A stretch of DNA of 64,000 nt from Acidobacteriota bacterium (GCA_046758905.1 JBHIBC010000007.1:2290-66289); one strand, 5' to 3'; positions 1 through 64,000 are shown, counted from the stretch's first letter. The notes: a model not told the origin generated them from the sequence alone. Program-made: numbers and translations.

Positions 1-1295
1 ACGTAGTACCACCGCGCGAAGCGGTCGTTGAGGTCCCTGGAGAGGGAGCTGCCCCTGTCCACCTTGCGACGCCATTCCTCGTGCGCGTCGTGCAGCTCCT
101 TGTTCCTGCGGTCGGCGTCGGTCCATTCGTCCTCGGGCCGGGTCTGGAAGTCGAGGTTCGCGGGCCGCCGCGGCTCGGGGAAGAGGTCGGGGTCGAACCG
201 GGTGGTGATGAAAAGATAGCGGTTCTCGCCCGGGGCTCCCGTCTGGTCGTCGTCCGATCCGGTCCCGGCGGTCACCGCCTCGCCGCGCCCGTAGACGATC
301 TCGCCGAACCGCATGGTGTAAACGACCCCGTCGGTGGTGCGGACTTCCAGCTCGCCCTCGTTGGAGACCAGCCGCCCGTCGCGCGTGAAGTAGAAGCCCT
401 TGCTGCGCAGCGATCGGATCTCGGACTGCGACACCTTGAGCCCGTCCTCCACCCGACGGAGCCCCTCAGTCAGGCCGGCGGGCTTGGGGCGGACGCCGAC
501 GATCGACAGCTCGTCGATGGCGGTCAGCAGGGCGCTCATCCTGGCCTCATCCACCTCCCGGCCGGACGACGTCCGGTTGGCCGACCAGCGGCCGTCCCTC
601 CTGGTCAGGACGACCGTGTCCCGATTGTCCAGGAGGCCCGTGCGCTCGTCGATCGAGTAGTCCCTGAGGACCACCTGATCGATGGCGGCCCGGTCGACGC
701 GGAGGAGGTCCCGATCGATCCAGTCCTCGAACCTCGAGGAGATGTCGATGTCCATCTTCGCCACGTATACACGTTTCTGGTCGGGCAGCCGCACGAAGCG
801 GAACCCGGGACGATCCTCCAGCTCCCTGCCGACGATGAAGTCGGCTAGGACCTGGCCGTTCTGGCCGCGGATCGTGACCCGCTTGCCCCGTCCCTTCAGC
901 GTGGCCACCCCCTCGTCGAGCGGGTCGATCACGCCGCACGCCTCGTGGTCGGCGACGTTGTCGGTCCGAAAATCGTCCTTGGTGATCCCGATAACCCCGG
1001 CGGCGGTGCGCGCCAGGCGGTCGCGGGCGTCCGCCGGATAGTCGTGGTGGGAGGGGATGGTCCAGCGGCCGTCCTTGAAGGTCACCTTGAAAGGACGGCC
1101 GGTCGCCGTCTCCTCGTCGAACTCGATCACCTCCAGCGTGGTCGCGGCGTTCGGGTCGCTGAAGTCGGGGAAGAACTGCTCGCCGCGATCGAGAAAGGCG
1201 TCGGGCGTCACCCTTCGGGGCGAGGTGAGCAGGGCGACGATCGCGAGGGCCACGGCGGCGGCGGCGAAGGTGATCGTCCTCCTGGTCTCGCTCAC
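1..1295 (-). CDS. DUF4340-type protein associated with Gld-like ABC system (partial, runs off left edge)
   Basis: Not in ORF track. Read manually from GTG at 1295, 2 nt after the upstream stop: MSETRRTITFAAAAVALAIVALLTSP...DGRWTIPSHHDYPAD...DFIVGR...RFVRLPDQKRVY...RFEDWIDRDL; the left edge reads DLNDRFARWYYV in the same frame. N-terminal TM anchor and position after GldG fit DUF4340. Confidence 0.8.
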   Translation of the reverse strand, partial: MSETRRTITFAAAAVALAIVALLTSPRRVTPDAFLDRGEQFFPDFSDPNAATTLEVIEFDEETATGRPFKVTFKDGRWTIPSHHDYPADARDRLARTAAGVIGITKDDFRTDNVADHEACGVIDPLDEGVATLKGRGKRVTIRGQNGQVLADFIVGRELEDRPGFRFVRLPDQKRVYVAKMDIDISSRFEDWIDRDLLRVDRAAIDQVVLRDYSIDERTGLLDNRDTVVLTRRDGRWSANRTSSGREVDEARMSALLTAIDELSIVGVRPKPAGLTEGLRRVEDGLKVSQSEIRSLRSKGFYFTRDGRLVSNEGELEVRTTDGVVYTMRFGEIVYGRGEAVTAGTGSDDDQTGAPGENRYLFITTRFDPDLFPEPRRPANLDFQTRPEDEWTDADRRNKELHDAHEEWRRKVDRGSSLSRDLNDRFARWYY

Positions 1296-1297
1296 GG

Positions 1298-3967
1298 TCA
1301 GGACCTCAGCCGCCGGGCCGCGGCCGCGCCCTGGCGCTCCCGCCGCTGCCGGCGTACGAAGATCGCCACGCCCAGCACGAAGACCGGGATCGGCGGCAGC
1401 AGGACCGCGAAGGTCCGGATCCCCCTCTGGATGCGGCGGACCTGCGCCTCCATGTTCTCCTTGCTGGCCTGGATCTTGGCTTCCTTCTGGTTCTCGATGT
1501 TGGCCCGGAGGACGTCGAGCCTGCGGTTCTCCACCTCCTCGAGATTGCGGGCCATGATCTGCTTGGTCTGCTCGTCGAGATCGGGCCGCTGGCGCACCTC
1601 GTTGACCCGCTCGGTGAGGCGTCTCTGGGCCTCGGACAGCGCCCGCTCCGCCTCCGCCTCCGCCTCGCGCTCCTCCTCCGCGCGCCGCTCGATGAACCGG
1701 CTGGTCTGCTCCTCGACCCTCCGCAGGGTGCGGTGGCGGACGCGCCGCTTGCGGAGCTCGATGAACGACTCATCGCCGATCAGGACATCCATGCAGTTCA
1801 AGAAAAAAGTCACGTTGTCGAAGATCAGGTTCGGCGGTCCGATCTTGCGCAGGTCGAAGAACTGCTGCGAGACGAAGTCCAGATCCGCCACGACGATGAG
1901 GTTCAGCGGATCGGGACGCGACTCCTGCTCCTCCTCCGACTCGCCGCCGCGCCGCACGTGGGCCGCCACCACGTAGTCCCGCGGATCGGGGTGATGGGGG
2001 AGGTTGTGGTTCAGCGTTGCGCCGAACAGCCCGCGCCGGACGATCTGGAAGTAGCTGAGCCGTCCCGAGAGGCGTCCCGTCCTGAGCAGCGGCCGGAAGT
2101 CGAAGCCGCCGTCGGCCGCCGCCTCGAGCCCGCCGGGGTAGAGGAAGACCAGCTCCTGCAGGCCGGCCGTGGCCGGGTCGTGGGGGTTGAACGCCGCCTC
2201 GGTCTCGTTGCCGGCGCCGATGAAGACCACCTCCGGAGGGAGGTGGGCGAGGTCCGGGTGGGGGTTGTAGGTGTCCCAGACCACCCGTGCCGCGTCCCAG
2301 CGCACGCCCAGACGGGTCAGCATCTGCTGGATGTTCCCCTTCGGCTTGGGCGGCGACGGTTGCTGCAGGAAGGGGTTGCGACCGGCCCCCGGCCGCTCGG
2401 AGGGGGCCAGCCCGATGTCGACCACCGGAACCGGGTCGATCAGGAGCAGCGCCGGGTGCCCCTGCTCGATGTAGGCGAGGACATTGTCCATCTCGGGCTG
2501 AGACAGCGATGACGGGAGTGCCACCAGCAGCCCGTCCAGCTCCTCGGTGATCGGGTTGGCGGGCTCGATCTGGATCACCTCGTACTGCTTCCTCAGCTCC
2601 TCGACCACCGGCCAGGGCGGCGTGGAGCGGAACGTCTGGAAGTCCATCCCCCCGAACAGACGCACCCCCGTATTCACCACCCCGACTCTCTTGCGCTCGG
2701 TCCGGGCGACCATGCGGATGCTGCGGACGATCTCGTACTCGGCCGGCAGGCCCCGGTCGAAGAAGGGGATCACCTGCTCCTCCGCGCCGCAGGTGAACGC
2801 GACTCCCAGGAAGACATCGGAGAACCCGGCCCGGGCGCTGCTCAGGTTGGGGATCTGTCGCGGGGTGATCCCGAACCTCTCGCGGGCCTCGCGGGCCACC
2901 TCCGTGTAGGGCTCGGCGTCCTCGATCAGGACCTGAACGCCGGCGCCGGACACGGCGTCGATCTCGCTCAGGATGTTCAGCAGGTCGTTCCGCGTCTGTA
3001 CGTACTGCTCCGGGACCTCCGGGCTGATGAAGGCCCGGATGAAGACGGGGCGGGCGGCGGGGAGACCATCGAGCAGGCGCAACGTCTCGTCGCTGAGAGA
3101 GTGCAGCCGCTCGGCCGTGGCGTCCAGCCGCAGTCCGGCGCGCCCGACGACCGCGGTCACGCTGATCAGGGCGACGGCCGTCGCCGACGCCCGGACGGCA
3201 TGGTGCAACCACGTCGGGAGGCCGTCGGCCTTCGGCGGCCAGTGCCGCCGCCCGATCAGCAGGACATTGAGATACAGCAGCAGGCCGGCGACCGAGGCGA
3301 AGTACAGGATGCCCCTGAGGCTGACGACGCCCCGGGCGAAGTCCTTGAAGTGGGCCACGGCTCCCAGCGGGGCCAGGAGGCGTCCGAGGTCCTGGCTGAA
3401 GACCGAAGCGAGCGTGTCGAGAAACACGAGCGTCGAGCACAGGAGCGCCCCCAGGATGTAGGCGATGGTGGCGTTGGAGGTCAGCAGCGAGCCCAGCATC
3501 CCGACGGCGATCAGGGCGGCGCCGATCAGCCAGTAGCCGAGGTAATTGCCCATCATCAGGCCGAGGTCGGGACTGCCCAGCCAGAACAGGACCAGGAGGT
3601 GGCTGAGCGACAGGATCAGGGCCACCGTGTAGATCCCGAGGGTGGCCAGATACTTGCCGAGCACCACCTCCACGTCGGTGGCCGGCAGCGTCAGGAGCAG
3701 CTCGTCGGTCCCCTGCTTCTTCTCCTCGGACCAGACGGCCATGGTCAGGGCCGGCACGAAGAATAGGAGCAGGTACGGGAACAGCCGGTTGAGCTGGTCG
3801 AGATTGGCCAGGTTGTTGAGGAAGAACCGGTCCTGCCAGAACGCGGCGGCCGCGCTGAGGAAGATGAACAGGGTGATGAAGACGTATCCCGTGGGGTTGC
3901 TGAAGTACATCCACAGGTCCCGCTTCACCAGCGCCCGGACGAACCGGAGATCGATTCCCGTCCTCAC
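1298..3967 (-). CDS. GldF-like ABC permease fused to GldG-like periplasmic domain (889 aa)
   Basis: GTG at 3967 overlaps the ATPase stop (GTGA). Contains KRDLWMYFSNPTGY, MAVWSEEKKQGTDELLLTLP, GVVSLRGILYF (GldF), then RLDATAERLHSLSDET, VVADLDF and NCMDVLIGD (GldG), a coiled coil and a C-terminal TM. Confidence 0.88.
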   Translation of the reverse strand: MRTGIDLRFVRALVKRDLWMYFSNPTGYVFITLFIFLSAAAAFWQDRFFLNNLANLDQLNRLFPYLLLFFVPALTMAVWSEEKKQGTDELLLTLPATDVEVVLGKYLATLGIYTVALILSLSHLLVLFWLGSPDLGLMMGNYLGYWLIGAALIAVGMLGSLLTSNATIAYILGALLCSTLVFLDTLASVFSQDLGRLLAPLGAVAHFKDFARGVVSLRGILYFASVAGLLLYLNVLLIGRRHWPPKADGLPTWLHHAVRASATAVALISVTAVVGRAGLRLDATAERLHSLSDETLRLLDGLPAARPVFIRAFISPEVPEQYVQTRNDLLNILSEIDAVSGAGVQVLIEDAEPYTEVAREARERFGITPRQIPNLSSARAGFSDVFLGVAFTCGAEEQVIPFFDRGLPAEYEIVRSIRMVARTERKRVGVVNTGVRLFGGMDFQTFRSTPPWPVVEELRKQYEVIQIEPANPITEELDGLLVALPSSLSQPEMDNVLAYIEQGHPALLLIDPVPVVDIGLAPSERPGAGRNPFLQQPSPPKPKGNIQQMLTRLGVRWDAARVVWDTYNPHPDLAHLPPEVVFIGAGNETEAAFNPHDPATAGLQELVFLYPGGLEAAADGGFDFRPLLRTGRLSGRLSYFQIVRRGLFGATLNHNLPHHPDPRDYVVAAHVRRGGESEEEQESRPDPLNLIVVADLDFVSQQFFDLRKIGPPNLIFDNVTFFLNCMDVLIGDESFIELRKRRVRHRTLRRVEEQTSRFIERRAEEEREAEAEAERALSEAQRRLTERVNEVRQRPDLDEQTKQIMARNLEEVENRRLDVLRANIENQKEAKIQASKENMEAQVRRIQRGIRTFAVLLPPIPVFVLGVAIFVRRQRRERQGAAAARRLRS

Positions 3968-44384: not shown

Positions 44385-44443
44385 GCACGGGAGCCCCCGC
44401 CCGCCCGCTGCATAGACTCCGCACGGCCCGCCTCAGGATCCGG

Positions 44444-44471
44444 TTGACAGGCCAGCACTTGGCGGTAGAAT
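44444..44471 (+). promoter_or_regulatory. Sigma70 promoter P1 upstream of the TonB-dependent receptor
   Basis: TTGACA-16 nt-TAGAAT. Confidence 0.7.
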
Positions 44472-44588
44472 TACGACCGCAGGTGTCGCCGCCGAATACC
44501 GCTGAGGTCCCGTACGCCCGGCACCGGACGGTCCGGGGGAGCGGAGGAGGGATGGGGGCAGAGTCACGAGGGGGCCGACGGGCCATCC

Positions 44589-48549: not shown

Positions 48550-49947
48550 ATGGGACTGCGCGTCTACAACACGCTGACCAGGAGAGTCGAGGATTTCGTC
48601 CCGTTGACGCCGGGAGAGGCGCGCCTGTACACCTGCGGGCCGACGGTGTACGACTACGCGCATATCGGGAACTTCCGGACCTACGTCTGGGAGGACCTGC
48701 TCCGCCGGTATCTCAGGTTCCGGGGCTTCCGCGTCGTCCAGGTGATGAACCTCACCGACGTGGACGATAAGACGATCGCCAACTCCTTGAAGGCGGGCCT
48801 CAACCTGGACGATTACACGCGACGCTACGTCGACGCCTTCTTCGAGGACATCGACGCGCTGGGGATAGAGCGGGCGGAGCACTATCCCCGCGCCACCCGG
48901 CACATCGACGAGATGGTGGCTCTCGTCCGCCGCCTCCGGGACAACGGTCACCTCTATGAAAGCCGCGGATCGCTGTATTTCCGCATCACCACCTTCCCCC
49001 GTTACGGCCGTCTGGCCCGCATCGACCCCGGGGCCGCATCGGGCCACGCGCGGATCGATTCGGATGAGTACGAGAAGGACGACCCGCGTGACTTCGCGGT
49101 CTGGAAGGCGCGCCGGGACGACGAGCCCTACTGGACGACGGAGATCGGTGAGGGACGCCCGGGATGGCACCTGGAGTGCTCGGCCATGTCGATGAAGTAC
49201 CTCGGCGAATCGTTCGACATCCACACCGGCGGCGTGGACAACATCTTCCCCCACCACGAGAACGAGATCGCCCAGAGCGAGGGAGCGACCGGCAGGCCGT
49301 TCGTGCGCTACTGGATGCATGCGGCCCACCTGATCGTCGACGGTCAGAAGATGTCGAAGTCGCTGGGGAACTACTACACCCTGCGCGACCTGCTGGGGCG
49401 GGGGTTCGATCCGCGCTCCATCCGCTACCTGCTGCTGTCGGCGCACTACCGCAGCCCCCTGAATTTCACCTTCGAGGCTCTCTCTCGGAGCGGGGCCTCG
49501 CTCGAGCGACTGGACGACCTGGCCCGTCGGCTCCGCGAGGCGTCGCTTCCGCCCGGCAGCGACCGGTCCCTCCGTAAGAGGATCGCCGCCGCGCGGGCCG
49601 GCTTCGTGGAGGCGCTGGACTCCGATCTCAACACGGCCGGGGCCCTCGGCCATCTCTTCGTCCTGGTGCGGGAGGCCCATACGGCCCTCGACGAGGGCAG
49701 GGCCGGCTCGGACGACGCGCGGGAGGTGCTCGACCTCCTGCGGACCTTCGAGTCGGTTTTCGGGGTCCGGGTCGGGCGGGTGGAGGCGCTCGACCGGGAG
49801 GTCGAGGAGATGATCCGCCGCAGGTCCGAGGCCCGAGCCCGCAAGGACTACGCGGAGGCCGACCGGATCCGGGACGCGCTCTCGACTCAGGGGATCGTTC
49901 TGGAGGACACCCCCCGGGGTGTGAGGTGGAAACGCCGGGGAGCCTGA
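48550..49947 (+). CDS. cysS: Cysteine--tRNA ligase
   Basis: YTCGPTVYDYAHIGN, GRPGWHLECSAM, FPHHENE, KMSKSLGN. Confidence 0.97.
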   Translation: MGLRVYNTLTRRVEDFVPLTPGEARLYTCGPTVYDYAHIGNFRTYVWEDLLRRYLRFRGFRVVQVMNLTDVDDKTIANSLKAGLNLDDYTRRYVDAFFEDIDALGIERAEHYPRATRHIDEMVALVRRLRDNGHLYESRGSLYFRITTFPRYGRLARIDPGAASGHARIDSDEYEKDDPRDFAVWKARRDDEPYWTTEIGEGRPGWHLECSAMSMKYLGESFDIHTGGVDNIFPHHENEIAQSEGATGRPFVRYWMHAAHLIVDGQKMSKSLGNYYTLRDLLGRGFDPRSIRYLLLSAHYRSPLNFTFEALSRSGASLERLDDLARRLREASLPPGSDRSLRKRIAAARAGFVEALDSDLNTAGALGHLFVLVREAHTALDEGRAGSDDAREVLDLLRTFESVFGVRVGRVEALDREVEEMIRRRSEARARKDYAEADRIRDALSTQGIVLEDTPRGVRWKRRGA

Positions 49948-49984
49948 GGGTCCCCGGCTCCGCCGGCGGCCGGCGTCCCGGCTC

Positions 49985-50012
49985 TAAACCGCACCCCGCC
50001 GCGTGCGGTCTA
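49985..50012 (+). promoter_or_regulatory. Candidate ECF-type autoregulatory promoter
   Basis: TAAACC-16 nt-GGTCTA just upstream of the ECF gene, resembling the AAC/GTC ECF promoter layout. Confidence 0.4.
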
Positions 50013-50030
50013 TCCCGTGCAGAGGAAGCG

Positions 50031-50606
50031 ATGGAGGCCGCCACCGAGACGATGGACACCGATGAGAGCCTGGTGGCCCGGTTCCGGTCCGGCGACGAGT
50101 CGGCCTTCGACGCGCTGGTCGCGCGGCACCGCCGCGACCTCTACGGGCTGGCCTACAGGCTGACCGGCTGTCACGAGGACGCGGACGATCTGTCGCAGGA
50201 GGCGTTCATGAGGGCTCATCGGGGGCTGCGGAAGTTCCGGGGCGAGGCGCAGTTCCGAACCTGGATGACGCGGATCGTCGTCAACCTGGCGCTGAATCTC
50301 CGGCGCGTCCGCCGGCTGCGGGCGGTGCCGTTGGATGAGGCGGTGGGCCTGCGGGGCGCGAGCCCGGAGGGGCCGGACTCGGTGCTCCGGCGGCAGGTGC
50401 GGGAGATGATCGGGACCCTGCCTCCGCGCCAGAGGCAGGTACTCAATCTCAAGGTTTACGAGGAGATGAGCTTTGTCGAGATCGCCGAGGCCGCGGGCAT
50501 GGCCGTCGGGACCGCCAAGGCGACCTTCTTCCAGGCGGTCCAGGGGCTGCGCAGCCGTCTGGCGGCGGCCGCCCGCGGGCGCGACACGGAGGAGGTGGGA
50601 GCATGA
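50031..50606 (+). CDS. ECF RNA polymerase sigma factor
   Basis: AFDALV, ADDLSQEAF, FRTWMTRIVVN, LPPRQRQVL, SFVEIAE, GTAK. Confidence 0.93.
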   Translation: MEAATETMDTDESLVARFRSGDESAFDALVARHRRDLYGLAYRLTGCHEDADDLSQEAFMRAHRGLRKFRGEAQFRTWMTRIVVNLALNLRRVRRLRAVPLDEAVGLRGASPEGPDSVLRRQVREMIGTLPPRQRQVLNLKVYEEMSFVEIAEAAGMAVGTAKATFFQAVQGLRSRLAAAARGRDTEEVGA

Positions 50607-51178
50607 TGCGCTGCGAGGAGGCCCGGCAGGCGGTGGCCCGTCGTCTGGCGGGGGAGTTGGATCCGACCGGCTCCAGAGCCCTCGGGGAGCATCTGCGCGC
50701 CTGCGGGGCCTGCGGCGCGGAGGCCGCGCGTCTGCAGGCGGCGCTCGATTCGCTGGGACGCCGGGAGGTCCCGGACCCCGGGCCGGAGTACTGGGCGAGC
50801 TACACGGATCGGCTGCGCGGCCGCCTCGCGAGGGCCGACGCCCGCCGGCGCAGCGTCGGAGCCGCCGCCGCGCTCGCCGCCGCGGCCGCGTTGGTCGTCT
50901 CGGTGGCGCTGCTCACCGCCCGGATGCCGAGGCCGCTCGCCCCGAGGCCGAATCCGATCGCGGAGGCGGACGCTTCGGCCGGCGGAGACGATCCGGAGGC
51001 CCGGTTCGAGGCCATCCTCCAGAGGGCGGCCGGTGTGGAGACGGGGCGCCGCGCACTCCTGAGGGTCCTCGATGAGATGACCTTAGGGGATCCCCTGGAG
51101 ATCGAGGATTCGCTCGAACGTCTCACGCCGGAGGAGACTGAAGCGCTAGGCCGTGAGCTGAGCCGGCTGCAGGGCTAG
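50603..51178 (+). CDS. Zinc-finger (zf-HC2/ZAS) anti-sigma factor
   Basis: HLRACGAC (HxxxCxxC) followed by one TM. ATGA overlap with the sigma gene. Confidence 0.88.
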   Translation: MMRCEEARQAVARRLAGELDPTGSRALGEHLRACGACGAEAARLQAALDSLGRREVPDPGPEYWASYTDRLRGRLARADARRRSVGAAAALAAAAALVVSVALLTARMPRPLAPRPNPIAEADASAGGDDPEARFEAILQRAAGVETGRRALLRVLDEMTLGDPLEIEDSLERLTPEETEALGRELSRLQG

Positions 51179-57082: not shown

Positions 57083-57243
57083 CCACGCGACCGCCTGGCG
57101 ACGGCGTGTCGCCGCCCGACCGCGGCCGTCGTCCCGACGCCTGCGTGCCACGTTCTGAAACGACAGCCCCCGGCGACCTGACGGACGGCCCTCCGACGGG
57201 CCGGTGCGCTGCCTAACTTTGAGGCTCATTTCAGGTTGTCCGG

Positions 57244-57272
57244 TTGACAGGAGAGCGGTTTCACCGTACATG
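57244..57272 (+). promoter_or_regulatory. Sigma70-type promoter of the giant subtilase
   Basis: TTGACA-17 nt-TACATG. Confidence 0.55.
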
Positions 57273-57473
57273 CCGATATCGGATGAACGTCGAGGGGGGG
57301 CGTGTCTGCGGGGCCCTGCGGCGGGCCCGCGGAACCGTCCGAGCCCGACGACCTTACAGACATCAACGATCGCAGGACGTGACTAGCGGACGCGATAAAA
57401 CGATCTGTCTCAGATCTCAACGCACTCCTGTCTTCATTTCGAGAACTCGGGGGCATGATTTCAGGGGGGAGCC

Positions 57474-60400
57474 ATGCATTCAAGCCTCAAGCGCCGAACC
57501 ATCCTGAGTGCTCTGTGCGCACTGCTGGTCGTCAGCGGTGCCCTGGCCACGCTCGGCCTGACGTCCGGACGGGGCCGGCACATGAGCGACGAGGAGCTGG
57601 CTCAGTACGCCGGCGATATCGAGTACAGCCGGCTGAACCGCAGGCCCGTGACGTTCGACCGCCGGCCGGGGATGAACCCGCTGGGGGATTTCCGGCCGAT
57701 GTGGAGCCAGACTGACCTGGCGGGCGGCCGGATGATCGAGACGCCTCTCGGGTTCGTCGACCCGGCGGAGATCGCGACGCTGCGGCAGCGCGTGCCGGCC
57801 CTGGCGGGGCGTCCGGGCCGGGGACTCCCCGAGGGAAAGCGCGGGGAGATGCGGGACGGCTTCAACGCCATTCAGCTGACGCAGCGCGCCGTCCGCGAGC
57901 GCGGGCTGCGGTCGATCCGGGAGGAGCTGGCGGCGCTCGGCGTGACGGTGCACGCGGTGATGCCGACGAACGCGCTGCTGGTGGAGGTGCCCGGGAGGGC
58001 GGTGCGGGAGCTGTCGGAGGCGGAGTTCCTGGCGGCGGCGATGCCGTGGGGCGCGCAGTTCCGCGTGCAGCCCTCCCTGGGGCGGCGACCGTTGCTGCAG
58101 CGGGACCGGGCGGCCAGCGAGGAGCTGCGGCTCCTGGTGCATCACTTCCCGGGGACGGACCCGGAAGAGGCGCGGGCGGCGCTGGCGCGGATCGCGGGCG
58201 AGGACAACGTGATCCCTTGGTCGGCCGTGAACCCGCTGTCGTTCGCGGTCCAGGCCCACTACTCGCGCTTACCCGCGATCGCCGGGCTGCCGCGGGTGAT
58301 GATGGTCGAGGAGGAGCCGGAGTACCTGCTGCAGTCGGTCGAGATCCCGACCACCGTCATGGTGGGGAACCTCAAGGAGAACCTCCCGTTCCAGAAGCCG
58401 TACCACGACGCGGGCGTGGACGGCGGCGGCGTCGACGGCGACGCCCTGGGGATCGCCGACGGCGAGCGGATCAACGACGGCAGCGACGTGGTGCCTCCGC
58501 AGATCGTGGCCGTGACGGACAACGGGGTGTCCTACGACTCGGTGGGATTCTCGCAGACGGGGACGCAGGCGATCACGCTGACCCGGCCGATCGGCCCGAG
58601 GCACAGGAAGGTCCACTCCATCCAGGCGGTGGAGGACACGGGAACGACCTGCGACGCGACCCTGTCGGGCGGCGGGACGCACGGCAACGTCGTGGCGGGG
58701 GTGATCGCGGGCGACGGATCGTCGGTAGGAGCTGCCGTCGACATCCACATCTACAACATCCGGGCCCGCGTCAATAAGCTGAGCATGGACGGGGTGGCGC
58801 GCGGAGCGCGAATCCTCATGCAGGACGCCGCGAGCGCCAGCCGCTGCACCATCGGCGCGCTCGTCGAGCAGGGCGGCAACGTCGCCCCCGGGGCGTTGCT
58901 GGATCGGCTCACCCTCGCGATCTGCCCGAGCGACGCCACCGGTACCGGGGCCTGCGCGGGACTGGTTGGAGGCGGCGAGGATGTCCACCTGCACGTCATG
59001 CCCTTCGGCGTGCCGAATTTCGGCGTGCAGCTCGAGTTCACCGACCAGGGGGACTACCCGCAGGACTCCCGGGACATCGATGCCTTCCTGGTGAATCACC
59101 GCGACTACATGGTCTTCGTCCCGGTCGGCAACGTCGGGACGCGGCTGCCCCAGGACTTCTCCCCCTTCCAGGGCGAGGTCCGCAGCCGCTACCCGGACCT
59201 GTTCAACGGCACGGCGCTGGACAACGACCCGAACGAGCCGAGCGGCCTGCAGATCGCGCCGCCGGCGACCGCGAAGAACATCGTCTCGGTGGGCAGCCAC
59301 TTCCAGGACACCCAGACGCAGTTCAGCTCGAACCTGGAGGAGAACCCGTCGAACTTCACCGCGAAGGGGCCCGCCACCTCCGCGTCGCTGCGGATGGCGC
59401 CGATGATCCTGAGCGTCGGCGGAGACGTGACCGGCTTCTTCTTCGGGCCGAACACCACCTCCGCGTCGGTGTGGCGCAGCATGGACAACGACAACAACAG
59501 CCCCGTCGAGGCCGTCCTGGACGGGATCAACTTCGGGACGTCGTACGCGGCGGCGGCGGTCGCCGGAGCCGCGGCGCTGGTGCGGGACTATTTCGCTCAG
59601 GGCTTCTATCCGACGGGGACCCGGGTCGACGGCGACCGGATCCCCAACGTGTCGGGGCCGATGGTGAAAGCGGCGATCGCGGCGTCGGCGAACTTCCTGG
59701 AGCAGATAGGGACGGACTACCCGACGCCGTCCGACCGCAGCGTGGCATTCGCGCGGGCGGTGAACCTGTCCATCGTGGCGGGATCGAACGTCGGCGTGAT
59801 CGGGAACAACGAACAGGGGTACGGACGCCCGGTCCTGACGTCCGTGCTGCCGCTGGCGAACTGGCCGACGGGCAAGGGGATCGGGTCCCCGGACACGGTG
59901 GAGTACCCGGCGGCGGGACTCATCGTGTACGACGAGCTGGCGACGGGGGAGCCGGCGATCCGCCACGAGACGCGGCCGGTGATCGAGCACGACTTCGTGG
60001 TCGACTCGGACAGCACGCTGCTGGTGCCGACGCCCGGGGGCACGGCGCGCGTGGTCTCGCGGGGCCAGTTGCGGGTGGCGCTGGCCTGGAGCGACGTGCC
60101 GGATCTGCTGGGGCCCGGGGGCCTGCTGATGAACGACCTGGACCTGGAGGTGGTGTCGCCGGGCCCGGACGCGGCGCTGGGGACCTCGGACGATATCGTC
60201 TATGACGGCAACGTGTACCATCTCGGGCAGGGGCTGAAACTGGGCCAGTGGAGCGTCGGCCGCGCGGCGGCGGAGCCGGACGTGTCCGACCGTCGCAACC
60301 CGATCGAGGCGGTGCACCTTTCGGCGGACCCGGACGGCGACGGGAATCCCCAGGACTCACAGCTGTTCACGGGGACGTGGCGCGTCCGAGTGAAGCAGGG

Positions 60401-63400
60401 CGCCGGCGGGGCCCTGCCGGGACAGATCGTGGTGCTGGATGGGCCGGATGAGGACGCCAACGGCAACGGGCGGCTGGACCCCGGGGAGGATCTGGATTCC
60501 GACGGGTTCCTGGATGCTGACGGGCAGCCGTACGGCCTGGTGGTCGCCGGTCCGGTGCTCGGGGTGGGAACCCAGACGACCGTGAACGGAACGATCGCGT
60601 TTCCGGGCAGCGCGGCGCGGCTGGAGAAGAGCCTGTACGGGTGCGCCGAGGACGTGGTTGCGACGGTGTTCGACATGGGCGTGACGGCCTCCGCGGTGTC
60701 GGCGGCGACGACGTTCGAGGTGGTCACGACCGACGGGCAGGTCGTGGACACCGAGTCGGGGATCGGGTTCAGCAACGGCGCCGCCAACTCGTTCACGTCG
60801 TCCGCGGTGCCGCTGCGGCAGGCGCGCGGCGGGGCGGTGAGCTACAACGGCGTTCTGGAGACGCGGGGCAACATTGCGGACGAGCCCTACTTCGTCCGGG
60901 CCCGGTACGCCGATACGCCGCGTGACGCGGTGGCCTCGTCGCGGATCTCCTGCGATCCGAACCTGCTGGCCTGGAGGTTCCTGATCGAGAACGAGAACGG
61001 GACGGACCAGGTGCTGATCGGCGGCGGGTGCGACCGGGACCAGTTCATGGATGCGGACGAGAACGTGACCTACTCGGTGACCTTCGTGAACTCGAACCGG
61101 GACCACGACCTGACGGACGTGCGGGCGTTCCTCGCGGCGTCGGGGCCGGGGGCGTCGGCGGTGCGGGTACTGAACTCGCCGCTGAACATGGGCCGGATCC
61201 CCGGCGGGCAGATCACGTCGGCCACCTTCTCCCTGCACATCGACGGCGCGGCGGTGGCGGCGCTGGCGGAGGCGGACCGCATCGTCAACATGACGCTGAC
61301 GCTGGAGGGGAACTCGGATCGGATCCAGCTGGATCGGCAGGTGTTCACCTTCAAGCATGCGCTGAACTCGGACTACGAGACGTTCCACTACTCGACCGAC
61401 TACCCGTTCGGCGGCCGCGAGATCCGCGACTTCAACAGGAATCTCCAGATCGACGCGGCGGACGTCTCCGACCCGTTCCTCGGCATCCAGTTGCCCGACG
61501 AGGATCTGATCTTCGATTCGATGTTCGTGCCGGGCACGGCCACCGGCCTGGTGACGAACACCCTGGGAGAGGACCTGAACGACAACGGCGTGCTCGACGG
61601 GGGCGAGCGGGACGTCATCCCGAACGGCATCCTGGACAGGGGGATCATCGCCGGCCCGACCCCGAGCAGCGCCGACAGGGCGCCGTTCCACTTCGACGCC
61701 AACGACGGCGGCTTCACGGGGCTGCGCCACCCGGCCAGCGTTCCGGGCGCCGCCTCCGGCGTGGCCTGGGAGTGGGTGCGCCGCGGCGTGTGCGGCTTCC
61801 AGACCGCCATTCAAGACAACAATGATTTCAATAATCTGGGGGCCGGCATCTGGCACACCGGGGACGGCAACCCGGCCACCCCGAGCGATGCGGCCTCGGC
61901 CTGCGACAGCCACGCCACGGCGTTCGACACCGCCACGCCCCCGGAGGTGGAGTTCTTCCAGGACTTCCTGGTGTCGCCGATCATCGCCAAGGTGCACCAG
62001 AAGCTCGATGCGCGCGGGCTGGAGTACAGCGCCGAGTTCCAGCGCATCGGCTTCAACCTCCAGATGCAGACGCAGGACGGTCTGACCGGCGGGTCGGTCA
62101 ACGTCGACAACAACGTCGACGACGACACCGGCAACTGTCTGCTGTGCCAGCCGTTCGATTTCACTTACGGCGGCATCGACTACCAGGTGGGCGACCTCGG
62201 CAGCAGCGGCTCCGGGGTCTTCCCGGGCGGGGTCGGCCTGCGCCAGCGGACCTTCGGGCCGCTGGAGGATCCGGACGGATCGTTCGCGGGTTGTCCGGGG
62301 GCGGGGCCCAACCTCAGCGGCGACGAGACGGGATTCACGGCCTGCACGCAGGACACCAACCCGAACAGCGGCAGCCCGATCCCCCTCGCGCCCGCCAATC
62401 TGCTGCCGTATCCGGTCCCCGACGCGCCCACGGTCCTGTCGTTCGAGAAGTCGTGCAGCGGCGACCCGCTGCGCCTGTGCGAGACCGACGCCGACTGCGA
62501 TCCGGGCGACACCTGCGAGAACAGGCCGTGGACCAATGATGTCGCCGGACCGGTGCGCAACCTGGAGTACACGCTGGTGACCTACGAGGCCGGCTTCATC
62601 TCGCTCATGGAGGGGCCGGGCGCGGACGAGACGGCGGCGGTCACCCCCTTCACGGTCAACCCCGGCAACCGCTGGCAGATCGCCATCGGCTTCTGGGACA
62701 TCGAGACGCTCGACAACCTGACCGACTACGGGATGGGCGTTGACGACGTGGTGTTCGAGTGGGACGAGCGGCACCCGGTGGACGAGGCGGCCCTCGGCCA
62801 CACCCCCGCCTGCCTGAGATTCGACCAGCCGGGGCAGGCGGCGGGACTGCAGTGCGGCTCCCTCTCGGTCGACCGCACCGCCCTGTTCGAGTGCGACGAG
62901 ACGCTGACCGTCACGGTCAACGACCCGAAGCGGGAAGGAGCGGGATCGGTGGCCGTGTTCGCCGCCTCCGACAGCGACGCCCGGCCGTTCAGCACCGGGG
63001 TGGTGACGGCGCTCCACCCGGTGAAGAGCTTCGAGCTGCCGGAGGTCGCCCCGGGTCTGTTCTCCGGGAACGTGACCATCACCCAGACCCTGAACACCGG
63101 CACGTCTCTGTTCGTCTCCACCCAGGACGACTCGATCCAGTTCTACTACCTCGACCCTCTGTGCGACGGGAACGGCAACGGGGTGCCGGGACAGACGGGG
63201 TTCGACAACCTGGACGGGGACGGGGTGATCTTCGACGCCGACAACTGCCCGTTCGACTACAACCCGGGCCAGGAGGACGCGGACGGCGACCTGCTGGGGG
63301 ACATCTGCGACAACTGCCCGAACAACGCCAACGCGGACCAGGCGGATTCCGACGGTGACGCGGTCGGCGACGTGTGCGACCTGGACGATATCGACTTCGA

Positions 63401-64000
63401 CGGAGTGGTGAACTCGCTGGACAACTGTCCGGACGTGTTCAACCCGCTGCAGACGCCCGCCGGCGGGGCCTCCGCAAGAGGGTCGGCATGCAACCAGAAC
63501 ACCGACCGGGACGCCGACGGCATCAACGACCGCCAGGACAACTGCGTGCGCACGCCGAACGCGGCCCAGACGGATCTGGACAGCGACGGCATCGGGGACG
63601 CCTGCGACGGCGACTGCGTCGGCGCGCGGGCCGATTCCCTTGCCACCGGCACCTGCAGCCGGTCGAGCGACATGCTCTGCGAGCTGGACACCGACTGTCC
63701 GACCTCCGGCGTCTGTCTCGAGGACCCGGAGACGGTCTGCACCGGCAGCGGTCCGCAGTGCACCTGCACGGACATCTCGCAGGAGACCTGCTCGCTGCTG
63801 GGGGTGGTCAACGAGGGCGCCTGCGGCAGCACCGACGACGACGTCGACATCGACGGGGTGACCGACGCCATCGACAACTGCCCGGTGGTCTTCAACGAGC
63901 CGATCGTCCCCGGGACGACCCGCCAGGCCGATTCCGATCGCGACGGCGTCGGAGACCAGTGCGACTCGATCTTCATGACGGACGGCGACAACAACGGGAT
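57474..64000 (+). CDS. Giant secreted S8 subtilase (KP-43/TagC-like) with Ca-binding, Cys-rich and thrombospondin type-3 repeats (partial, >=2175 aa)
   Basis: Not in ORF track; read manually with no stop to the window end. GGGGGAG RBS and signal peptide. Catalytic residues D349 (VTDNG), H403 (THGNVVAG), N553 (VGNVG), S690 (GTSYA). Also PATAKN, VRDYFAQGFYPTG, LRVALAWSD..NDLDL, and five DNC[PV] TSP3 units from about 63210. Confidence 0.92.
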   Translation, partial: MHSSLKRRTILSALCALLVVSGALATLGLTSGRGRHMSDEELAQYAGDIEYSRLNRRPVTFDRRPGMNPLGDFRPMWSQTDLAGGRMIETPLGFVDPAEIATLRQRVPALAGRPGRGLPEGKRGEMRDGFNAIQLTQRAVRERGLRSIREELAALGVTVHAVMPTNALLVEVPGRAVRELSEAEFLAAAMPWGAQFRVQPSLGRRPLLQRDRAASEELRLLVHHFPGTDPEEARAALARIAGEDNVIPWSAVNPLSFAVQAHYSRLPAIAGLPRVMMVEEEPEYLLQSVEIPTTVMVGNLKENLPFQKPYHDAGVDGGGVDGDALGIADGERINDGSDVVPPQIVAVTDNGVSYDSVGFSQTGTQAITLTRPIGPRHRKVHSIQAVEDTGTTCDATLSGGGTHGNVVAGVIAGDGSSVGAAVDIHIYNIRARVNKLSMDGVARGARILMQDAASASRCTIGALVEQGGNVAPGALLDRLTLAICPSDATGTGACAGLVGGGEDVHLHVMPFGVPNFGVQLEFTDQGDYPQDSRDIDAFLVNHRDYMVFVPVGNVGTRLPQDFSPFQGEVRSRYPDLFNGTALDNDPNEPSGLQIAPPATAKNIVSVGSHFQDTQTQFSSNLEENPSNFTAKGPATSASLRMAPMILSVGGDVTGFFFGPNTTSASVWRSMDNDNNSPVEAVLDGINFGTSYAAAAVAGAAALVRDYFAQGFYPTGTRVDGDRIPNVSGPMVKAAIAASANFLEQIGTDYPTPSDRSVAFARAVNLSIVAGSNVGVIGNNEQGYGRPVLTSVLPLANWPTGKGIGSPDTVEYPAAGLIVYDELATGEPAIRHETRPVIEHDFVVDSDSTLLVPTPGGTARVVSRGQLRVALAWSDVPDLLGPGGLLMNDLDLEVVSPGPDAALGTSDDIVYDGNVYHLGQGLKLGQWSVGRAAAEPDVSDRRNPIEAVHLSADPDGDGNPQDSQLFTGTWRVRVKQGAGGALPGQIVVLDGPDEDANGNGRLDPGEDLDSDGFLDADGQPYGLVVAGPVLGVGTQTTVNGTIAFPGSAARLEKSLYGCAEDVVATVFDMGVTASAVSAATTFEVVTTDGQVVDTESGIGFSNGAANSFTSSAVPLRQARGGAVSYNGVLETRGNIADEPYFVRARYADTPRDAVASSRISCDPNLLAWRFLIENENGTDQVLIGGGCDRDQFMDADENVTYSVTFVNSNRDHDLTDVRAFLAASGPGASAVRVLNSPLNMGRIPGGQITSATFSLHIDGAAVAALAEADRIVNMTLTLEGNSDRIQLDRQVFTFKHALNSDYETFHYSTDYPFGGREIRDFNRNLQIDAADVSDPFLGIQLPDEDLIFDSMFVPGTATGLVTNTLGEDLNDNGVLDGGERDVIPNGILDRGIIAGPTPSSADRAPFHFDANDGGFTGLRHPASVPGAASGVAWEWVRRGVCGFQTAIQDNNDFNNLGAGIWHTGDGNPATPSDAASACDSHATAFDTATPPEVEFFQDFLVSPIIAKVHQKLDARGLEYSAEFQRIGFNLQMQTQDGLTGGSVNVDNNVDDDTGNCLLCQPFDFTYGGIDYQVGDLGSSGSGVFPGGVGLRQRTFGPLEDPDGSFAGCPGAGPNLSGDETGFTACTQDTNPNSGSPIPLAPANLLPYPVPDAPTVLSFEKSCSGDPLRLCETDADCDPGDTCENRPWTNDVAGPVRNLEYTLVTYEAGFISLMEGPGADETAAVTPFTVNPGNRWQIAIGFWDIETLDNLTDYGMGVDDVVFEWDERHPVDEAALGHTPACLRFDQPGQAAGLQCGSLSVDRTALFECDETLTVTVNDPKREGAGSVAVFAASDSDARPFSTGVVTALHPVKSFELPEVAPGLFSGNVTITQTLNTGTSLFVSTQDDSIQFYYLDPLCDGNGNGVPGQTGFDNLDGDGVIFDADNCPFDYNPGQEDADGDLLGDICDNCPNNANADQADSDGDAVGDVCDLDDIDFDGVVNSLDNCPDVFNPLQTPAGGASARGSACNQNTDRDADGINDRQDNCVRTPNAAQTDLDSDGIGDACDGDCVGARADSLATGTCSRSSDMLCELDTDCPTSGVCLEDPETVCTGSGPQCTCTDISQETCSLLGVVNEGACGSTDDDVDIDGVTDAIDNCPVVFNEPIVPGTTRQADSDRDGVGDQCDSIFMTDGDNNG

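Follow-up and report, generated by a model that had tools for sequence, protein, structure and literature searches.

Lactocepin PrtP and the streptococcal C5a peptidase are large multidomain subtilases of the S8 family that have a prodomain, are exported by a signal peptide and cut extracellular proteins, their C-terminal beta-sandwich (Fn-like) domains holding the enzyme at the surface. KP-43 from Bacillus sp. KSM-KP43 (1WMD) and SubHal from Bacillus halmapalus (5FAX) consist of an S8 core and an adjoining jelly-roll, about 43 kDa in all, with nothing beyond the jelly-roll. Here we describe a giant subtilase gene that lies at the end of a 64,000-nucleotide stretch of DNA from an Acidobacteriota bacterium (GCA_046758905.1, JBHIBC010000007.1:2290-66289; below called the window, with positions counted from its first letter). 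The gene encodes an uncharacterised multidomain secreted S8 protease, of which the domains without a described relative (the dark domains), the four-fold paralogy and a candidate sorting module stand out.

The window corresponds to C7:2290-66289 of a 2.9 Mb assembly (~70% GC, rated 98.5% complete) that comes from a hydrothermal-vent metagenome. Its +1 frame has an ATG at 57474 and no stop before the end of the window, and the preliminary description was right that the open reading frame (ORF) had been missed, since the default ORF list skips frames that run off the source. That description had given the length as >2175 aa, which is correct as far as the frame is open to the window end and falls short of the true length. 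Retrieval of the full gene, which it had advised, placed the stop codon on the parent contig 2,281 nt past the window end and gave a protein of 2,935 aa ending at C7:68570 (complete gene C7:59763-68570, equal to L009:4764-13571, plus strand in the window). The protein has a mass of ~305 kDa and an isoelectric point of 4.2, with 61 Cys (many of them invariant), 9.8% Asp and 0.9% Lys, and carries 14 DxDxDG-like loops in addition to thrombospondin type 3 (TSP3) repeats. GC at the first, second and third codon positions (GC1/GC2/GC3) is 0.66/0.49/0.94, a pattern that identifies the giant frame as the coding frame. Several overlapping ORFs of 600-1,400 aa on the opposite strand are GC artefacts.

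Public data hold more than 120 full-length relatives (2,890-3,160 aa, 44-66% identity, ~100% coverage) annotated as 'thrombospondin type 3 repeat-containing protein', 'S8 family serine peptidase' or 'hypothetical', and these together with the frame on the parent contig confirm that the ORF is real. Where the host genomes are named they belong to Acidobacteriota subdivision 22 (Candidatus Polarisedimenticolia). In a survey of 401 genomes sampled across the phylum, full-length giants were found in 7/7 genomes of the same taxonomic family (this one included) and 2/2 of the same order, and remoter giant subtilases (ORFs of 2,200-3,500 aa) in 22 of the 30 other genomes of the class; none of the 362 surveyed genomes outside the class had a giant subtilase. 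The remote members retain the order S8, TSP3, DWHxHCP domain (a beta-sandwich described below). The family is confined to the class Polarisedimenticolia. One series of metagenome-assembled genomes (MAGs) is labelled Dongiaceae, Verrucomicrobiia, Cryosericum, Patescibacteria or Binatia (L010, L012, L014, L019, L041 and others); their orthologs nest among Polarisedimenticolia sequences, those of L012 and L028 being nearly identical, and these taxonomy labels are probably wrong.

Four full-length copies are present in this genome, on C7, C30, C4 and C24, with a mutual identity of 44-52%. A maximum-likelihood tree puts each of them in a separate clade with a Shimodaira-Hasegawa-like approximate likelihood ratio (SH-aLRT) support of 100, and single MAGs are represented in every clade. 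Such MAGs with one member per clade imply that the duplications predate the diversification of the group, and all four ancient orthogroups are retained with one architecture. No NCBIfam equivalog covers the protein (MtsC, NF047638, scored 109.7 against a cut-off of 350 and mycosin, TIGR03921, 28.2 against 278.75), the Protein Data Bank (PDB) offers just KP-43 and SubHal, and a literature search found no paper describing the giant subtilase architecture, which is thus unlike that of any characterised protein. The earlier statement that the architecture was not recognised as described therefore holds in the sense that it is uncharacterised and fails in that databases contain its many full-length relatives. 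That account had said nothing of four ancient paralogs, of a distribution limited to a single class or of an end domain shared with other proteins.

The features of the protein, all on the plus strand where they lie in the window, are as follows.

57474..57569, plus strand: predicted signal peptide, aa 1-32, in which a KRR n-region precedes 24 uncharged core residues, with small residues at -3 and -1
57570..58373, plus strand: pro-region, presumed propeptide, aa 33-300, assigned by position and as the least conserved part
58374..59843, plus strand: S8 subtilase catalytic domain, aa 301-790 (Peptidase_S8)
58518-58520, 58680-58682, 59130-59132 and 59541-59543, plus strand: key codons for Asp349, His403, Asn553 and Ser690
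59844..60593, plus strand: KP-43-type jelly-roll with Asp-rich (DxDxDG-like) loops, aa 791-1040, by profile match to KP-43 and SubHal
60594..60968, plus strand: first 'YxC...TVFD' beta-domain (IgA), aa 1041-1165, motif at aa 1048-1067 (nt 60615)
60969..61373, plus strand: repeat domain copy A, aa 1166-1300, homologous to copy B
61374..61673, plus strand: conserved linker with Asp-rich loop, aa 1301-1400, between-clade identity 0.58, related to the jelly-roll loop
61674..62843, plus strand: beta-sandwich 'S4', aa 1401-1790, ending GMGVDDVVFEWDE, defined by an AlphaFold2 (AF2) model and conservation
62844..63158, plus strand: second 'FEC...TVTVND' beta-domain (IgB), aa 1791-1895, motif at aa ~1797-1817 (nt 62862)
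63159..63998, plus strand: TSP3 repeats and Cys-rich insert, aa 1896-2175, by TSP_3 matches, cut by the window end
L009:11319-11723, beyond the window: repeat domain copy B, aa 2186-2320
beyond the window: linker, aa 2321-2400
L009:11964-12878, beyond the window: 'DWHxHCP' beta-sandwich, aa 2401-2705
beyond the window: T1 domain, aa 2706-2815
L009:13209-13568, beyond the window: FN3-like Cys-Pro end domain, aa 2816-2935

The Pfam model Peptidase_S8 (PF00082) matched aa 344-739 with 53.7 bits against a gathering threshold of 21.8, and 12 of 16 relatives also passed this threshold. Since these residues span just 269 model positions, ~125 aa of them are insertions, in keeping with the large insertions first reported for the catalytic domain. 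The D/H/N/S set is likewise intact and lies where it had been placed, in the contexts VTDNG (Asp349), GGTHGN (His403), VPVGN (Asn553) and GTSYA (Ser690). Asp349, His403 and Ser690 are invariant in 114/114 full-length database relatives and in 118/118 sequences when the paralogs of this genome are counted. A triad without exception argues that the protease domain is not dead, as the preliminary description had allowed it might be, and by this measure the giant subtilase is catalytically competent. Asn553, at the predicted oxyanion hole, aligns with the Asn of the KP-43 motif 'AAGNEG', and 36 of 38 clade-A members retain it. In clades B and C, for example in the copy at C4:50072-58867 of this genome, a change of this Asn to Ser may reflect catalytic subfunctionalisation among the paralogs.

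A family profile built from aa 290-1045 of 32 orthologs and searched against the PDB matched just two sequences, KP-43 (1wmd, E 1.6e-11) and SubHal (5fax), and confirmed the subtilase as KP-43-like. The similarity is remote, with an E of 0.02 when the single sequence is used. The profile match takes in the regions around the oxyanion 'GN.G' and the Ser and extends to the strands of the C-terminal jelly-roll, where 'LRVALAWsD.P...NDLDLEV' (profile positions 562-602) aligns with KP-43 residues 341-381; the jelly-roll that had been proposed from sequence is thus upheld. DxDxDG-like loops lie in it at aa 952, 992 and 1006, and this stretch has a relative in the linker at aa 1355-1391 (hhalign 94%). 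Asp-rich loops do therefore recur after the catalytic domain as had been noticed, and they would be expected to bind Ca.

At the N-terminus the family has a K/R-R-R n-region, an uncharged stretch of 24-26 aa and (T/A/S)-W-A followed by G/A-R, which fits the -3/-1 rule. This conserved N-terminus bears out the signal peptide, whose cleavage we infer from the family sequences. The giant protein has no hydrophobic segment beyond it. The pro-region that follows is the least conserved part (identity 0.41 within clades and 0.27 between clades). It gave no Pfam match in 16 members, no I9 among them, and its PDB profile search returned only a faint match to the Tk-subtilisin propeptide (E 1.4). Alignment to the BPN' propeptide fell at the expected alpha2-beta4 position, yet was non-significant (hhalign E 0.04, probability 1%). 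The propeptide of about 300 aa that had been suggested agrees with the position and the lower conservation of this region and finds no I9 match in Pfam or the PDB profile. Taken with the acidity, the Cys content and the Asp loops, the conserved N-terminus points to an exported, disulfide-bonded, Ca-binding protein.

Beyond the jelly-roll the protein is largely dark. Pfam recognises just Peptidase_S8 and TSP_3 in the giant protein and 16 diverse relatives, and ~1,800 residues (~60% of each giant protein) match no described domain family. The dark parts are not loosely conserved: the two large beta-sandwich domains reach an identity of 0.62-0.65 within clades and 0.51-0.54 between clades, against 0.67 and 0.54 for the S8 core. 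Accessory domains that are conserved like the catalytic core and constant in length argue against a variable adhesin stalk. The TSP3 repeats are recognised, TSP_3 (PF02412) scoring 50-57 bits against 25 in 4-7 stretches over aa ~1910-2170 and being found in 16/16 relatives, in agreement with their first assignment.

The two starts of the form 'YxC-x-E/D...TVxD' noted in the preliminary description are present at aa 1048 and ~1797, and their cysteines, Cys1057 (IgA) and Cys1807 (IgB), are invariant. Their mutual similarity is weak (IgA versus aa 1790-1900, hhalign 58%, E 1e-4), and IgA has no Pfam and no PDB profile match. A clearer internal duplication relates aa 1165-1300 to aa 2185-2320 (hhalign 96%, E 2.8e-9, 95 columns). 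BLAST self-comparison revealed nothing, and profiles were needed to reveal the duplications. The region had been labelled CARDB-like; it is genuinely duplicated, but the label was not confirmed, as CARDB (PF07705) gave no match in 16 members at E up to 0.05, nor was there a PDB profile match.

Domain-wise structure prediction, another of the checks first proposed, was run on S4 and on the DWHxHCP domain with AF2 from 32-sequence alignments, and both were modelled as beta-sandwiches. S4 (aa 1400-1790), which is conserved to the same degree as the catalytic domain, gave a mostly beta model with a predicted local distance difference test (pLDDT) score of 68.8 and a predicted template modelling (pTM) score of 0.74. 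Foldseek matched it best, among PDB structures, to legume lectins, to ConA-like folds and to MAM, none of them at an E of 0.1 or lower. It had been called MAM-like. Pfam MAM (PF00629) is absent in 16 members and the neuropilin MAM fold matched S4 and the DWHxHCP domain with an E of 0.4-4 and a template modelling (TM) score of 0.18-0.26; the term would hold only for the general fold class, a beta-sandwich. The DWHxHCP domain (aa 2395-2710; pLDDT 75, pTM 0.79) was matched best by InhA2 (E 9e-3, TM 0.24), then by carbohydrate-binding module (CBM) folds and neuropilin MAM. It has an invariant His/Cys cluster, DWHxHCP...HWGxH...HETMC. The copper sites of MopE and CorA use a Trp-x-His arrangement, from which the W-H-I-H of this domain differs, and a CorA/MopE-like copper site was rejected, Foldseek having matched CorA no better than by chance (E 0.12, probability 0.13). 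Homology between S4 and the DWHxHCP domain was also rejected (hhalign probability 0.2%). PDB profile searches with S4, the DWHxHCP domain, the Ig/repeat segment and the pro-region returned nothing meaningful, S4 having no relative and matches to phycobilisome-linker and ribosomal proteins being due to chance.

Some of these modules occur outside the giants. The DWHxHCP domain has no Pfam family and is found in 453 cluster representatives among 1.84 billion proteins, in giants as well as in proteins of 550-1,400 aa. The domain partners in the shorter proteins, just TSP3 and PD40, were uninformative. Two shorter secreted proteins of this genome carry the module of repeat domain, Ca loop and DWHxHCP (giant aa 2193-2710) at ~40% identity, followed in both by MopE-type 'putative metal-binding motif' repeats:

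C4:~1-2266, minus strand: 755-aa ORF running off the contig
C82:9973-12090, minus strand: 706-aa protein

The last ~110 aa of the giant resemble the FN3 domain of chitinase A1 (1k85, E 1.7e-4 over 53 columns), with no Pfam fn3 match, and terminate in Cys2934 and Pro2935, both invariant. This Cys-Pro end domain, for which there is no Pfam model, closes 14-19 ORFs in the genome and lies almost always at the extreme C-terminus. It has the motif 'L.W...Y.V.RG...C...A.[FY]Y.V[RG]...G.[ST]S.G..R...C-P-stop', and ORFs ending in Cys-Pro number 11 of 2,099 where about 1-2 would be expected. The secreted proteins that carry it, at least 14 besides the giant described here, have unrelated cargo and include subtilases, a PA-containing M4 protease, a CxxCH (multihaem) protein and FG-GAP or beta-propeller proteins. 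In addition to the four giants the following ORFs have the domain, which on these grounds is a candidate lineage-specific sorting or attachment module.

C2:31396-32550, plus strand
C3:61357-62730, plus strand
C23:26634-29240, minus strand
C86:8897-10372, minus strand
C82:9973-12090, minus strand
C99:5197-8544, minus strand
C14:27738-30452, minus strand
C17:8487-11201, minus strand

Two elements precede the giant gene.

57244..57272, plus strand: promoter-like element TTGACA, 14 nt, CCG, TACATG (17-nt spacer), ~230 nt 5' of the ATG
57464..57476, plus strand: Shine-Dalgarno sequence (GGGGGGAG) and ATG, with GGGAGG-like and ATG columns conserved in clade-A orthologs

All four giant copies have TTGACA-N14-CCG-TAnnnG ~160-330 nt upstream, and the strict form TTGACA-N14-CCGTA occurs at 5 sites in the 2.9 Mb genome, 4 of which are those upstream of the giants. 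The fifth, at C2:64407 on the plus strand, lies upstream of a 2,025-aa TSP3-rich ORF. The motif stands upstream of 21 of 31 orthologs, with all four clades represented, and in a clade-A alignment the promoter block is invariant within otherwise diverged intergenic DNA; the leader downstream is not conserved and has no Rfam match to a leader RNA or riboswitch. A private regulon or a promoter of the extracytoplasmic function (ECF) type was considered and rejected, as the relaxed pattern TTGAC-N17-TAnnn(T/G) occurs at 25 genome sites that include unrelated genes. We therefore read the promoter as a strong and conserved housekeeping one, predicted to be of the general sigma70-like type of this organism.

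A 13-mer, TCCGGTTGACAGG, that is found at 57239-57251 occurs also at 44439, there with a spacer of 16 nt and TAGAAT behind it (44439-44475 of the window), a strong sigma70-type promoter before a TonB-receptor-like gene whose product also has Asp-rich Ca loops. The shared 13-mer is a common promoter type and no sign of specific co-regulation. As read by eye from the translation, 49926-51178 of the window contains a gene for an ECF-type sigma factor next to an anti-sigma-like one, ~6 kb upstream of the giant gene.

The genes around the four copies in this genome differ (LepA, RuvA/RuvC, cytochrome oxidase and aminotransferases, from GC3-based gene calls), so that the copies share no operon. Clustering of the flanking ORFs from 51 loci likewise gave no conserved partner gene, nor did the surroundings of the four in-genome copies. 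Each giant stands singly among unrelated housekeeping genes.

From these data we lean, with moderate confidence, towards the giant subtilase being a Ca-stabilised, particle- or cell-associated extracellular protease that serves nutrition. The protein would be exported by the Sec route and fold with Ca2+ and many disulfides, after which the pro-region would be removed autocatalytically. The protease would then act outside the cytoplasm, bound to the cell or to particles, and feed a protein-degrading bacterium. Its lectin/MAM/CBM-like beta-sandwiches and Ca repeats could hold the enzyme on substrate, matrix or cell surface, and the shared Cys-Pro end domain could serve as targeting or attachment module. 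The data show the ORF, its homology to S8 and KP-43, the invariant triad, the conservation over the whole length, the four orthogroups, the limitation to one class and the conserved promoter. How the protein is exported, that its propeptide is cleaved and that it binds Ca, where it is located, that it serves nutrition and what the end domain does are what we infer. The four paralogs probably differ in substrate, partner or activity. Polarisedimenticolia are predicted protein degraders with many secreted peptidases (PMC8528874), a lifestyle with which a nutritional protease agrees.

Several observations weigh against this reading. The strict length and the four 1:1 orthogroups would be unusual for simple nutritional proteases, and a role in structure or assembly accounts for them no less well. 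A protein of 305 kDa would have an outer membrane to cross. At the oxyanion position 32 of 38 clade-B and 12 of 39 clade-C members have Ser instead of Asn, with the triad still invariant, and some paralogs may be weak enzymes. The propeptide is a putative one, the pro-region having no significant Pfam or PDB relative. Neither of the large beta-sandwiches has a significant fold match (TM about 0.2-0.27), and no recognised anchor, adhesin or carbohydrate-binding family was found by Pfam in the protein and 16 members. The preliminary description had proposed a protease-adhesin or an autoprocessing scaffold. Of this the protease part stands, given the invariant triad, while the analysis revealed neither an adhesin family nor an anchor nor a site of processing.

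A scaffold of the latter kind is the alternative that survives best, and we regard it as rather unlikely. In it the paralogs would be structural subunits of a Ca2+-stabilised envelope layer or matrix and the subtilase would mainly mature itself or its sisters. The constant length, the conservation over the full length and the four 1:1 orthogroups are what such subunits would show, and the protein is very acidic and rich in Ca loops and Cys. Strong promoters with long leaders are typical of abundant envelope proteins, and the giants have strong conserved promoters with long leaders. The change of the oxyanion Asn to Ser in most clade-B members suggests a relaxed catalytic demand in some paralogs, and through the C-terminal domain that they share many proteins could dock onto a single structure. 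However the triad stays invariant throughout the four clades, even where Ser takes the oxyanion position; the four genes lie at separate loci, and Pfam matched no SLH, S-layer or other lattice family in the protein and 16 members.

Less probable still is a factor of adhesion, cell cohesion or antagonism whose TSP3/beta-sandwich part binds cells, mineral or host while the protease modifies the target. The lectin/MAM/CBM-like folds would suit it, as would a particle-attached life in vents or sediments, which is plausible for the source, and the TSP3 block has a weak, sub-threshold likeness to MtsC (109.7 versus 350 bits). That score is nevertheless far under the cut-off, and the TSP3 repeats suffice to explain it. 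The protein showed neither a MYXO-CTERM nor any other anchor, and the gene had no immunity-like or toxin-like neighbours. Adhesins usually vary in repeat number and sequence, whereas the giant family is rigid.

It is tempting to speculate, and we give this a slim chance, that the four paralogs are expressed together and make up a single Ca2+-dependent proteolytic assembly at the surface, found in Polarisedimenticolia and nowhere else, with the Cys-Pro domain as a new sorting or attachment signal and the dark beta-sandwiches as new binding or metal modules. If that were so the Cys-Pro domain would have a role analogous to the C-terminal domain (CTD) of the type IX secretion system (T9SS) or to PEP-CTERM, and would deliver at least 14 secreted proteins (subtilases, M4 protease, multihaem and FG-GAP proteins) to the structure. 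Finally a pseudo-protease or spurious ORF in DNA of 70% GC is effectively refuted: high-GC genomes do yield long spurious ORFs, as the antisense frames of 600-1,400 aa over this gene illustrate, but the contrast of GC3 to GC2, the >120 full-length homologs at 44-66% identity with an invariant triad and the conserved promoter and Shine-Dalgarno sequence all contradict it.

The class Polarisedimenticolia (Acidobacteriota subdivision 22/Mor1), which has no cultured member, occurs widely in marine sediments and is thought to live by degrading protein. Four 300-kDa subtilases take up ~1.2% of the DNA of each genome, and as the four copies have been kept since before the lineage diversified they are probably central to its dealings with the environment. 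Solving the dark parts could define new binding or metal domains and reveal a possible new protein-sorting signal, and could also give better markers of extracellular proteolysis in sediments and vents.

Compared with described systems, the nearest structural relatives of the giant are KP-43 and SubHal, which have in common with it the S8 core with adjoining jelly-roll, the 'L+-sL.WsD.P...NDLDL' strand pair and the aligned 'GN.G' Asn. The giant differs from them by core insertions of ~125 aa, extra Asp-rich loops in the jelly-roll, a pro-region of ~270 aa and ~1,900 aa more beyond the jelly-roll, for a total of 2,935 aa. MtsC, a MYXO-CTERM cohesion protein, shares with it a TSP3 block with a paired Cys/Asp pattern; in the giant the score is far below the MtsC cut-off, the MYXO-CTERM is absent and the repeats make up ~10% of an otherwise unrelated protein. 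The MAM-like domain of InhA2 (4YU6), the MAM of neuropilin-1, CBM and legume lectins are the best fold matches of its large domains. The strand ends 'DDVVFEW' and 'GWWVDDI' resemble MAM-type ends, and the M4 protease of this genome on C99 has a similar 'GWYVDN'. All these matches are non-significant (E 9e-3 to above 0.1), without a Pfam MAM, CBM or lectin match, and the giant domains, at 300-390 aa, contain large inserts as well as invariant His, Cys and Trp positions to which nothing in those folds corresponds. By analogy the closest functional parallel would be the cell-envelope proteinases PrtP and C5a peptidase, with the giant outside that group. Proteins of their type have a PA insert and an LPXTG/wall region, neither of which was found in the giant (by Pfam, and with no C-terminal hydrophobic segment), although a PA domain is detectable in another protease of the genome. 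Against these proteinases the giant subtilase is set apart by unrelated accessory domains, ~1,000 aa of additional length, a host of Gram-negative type and four ancient paralogs.

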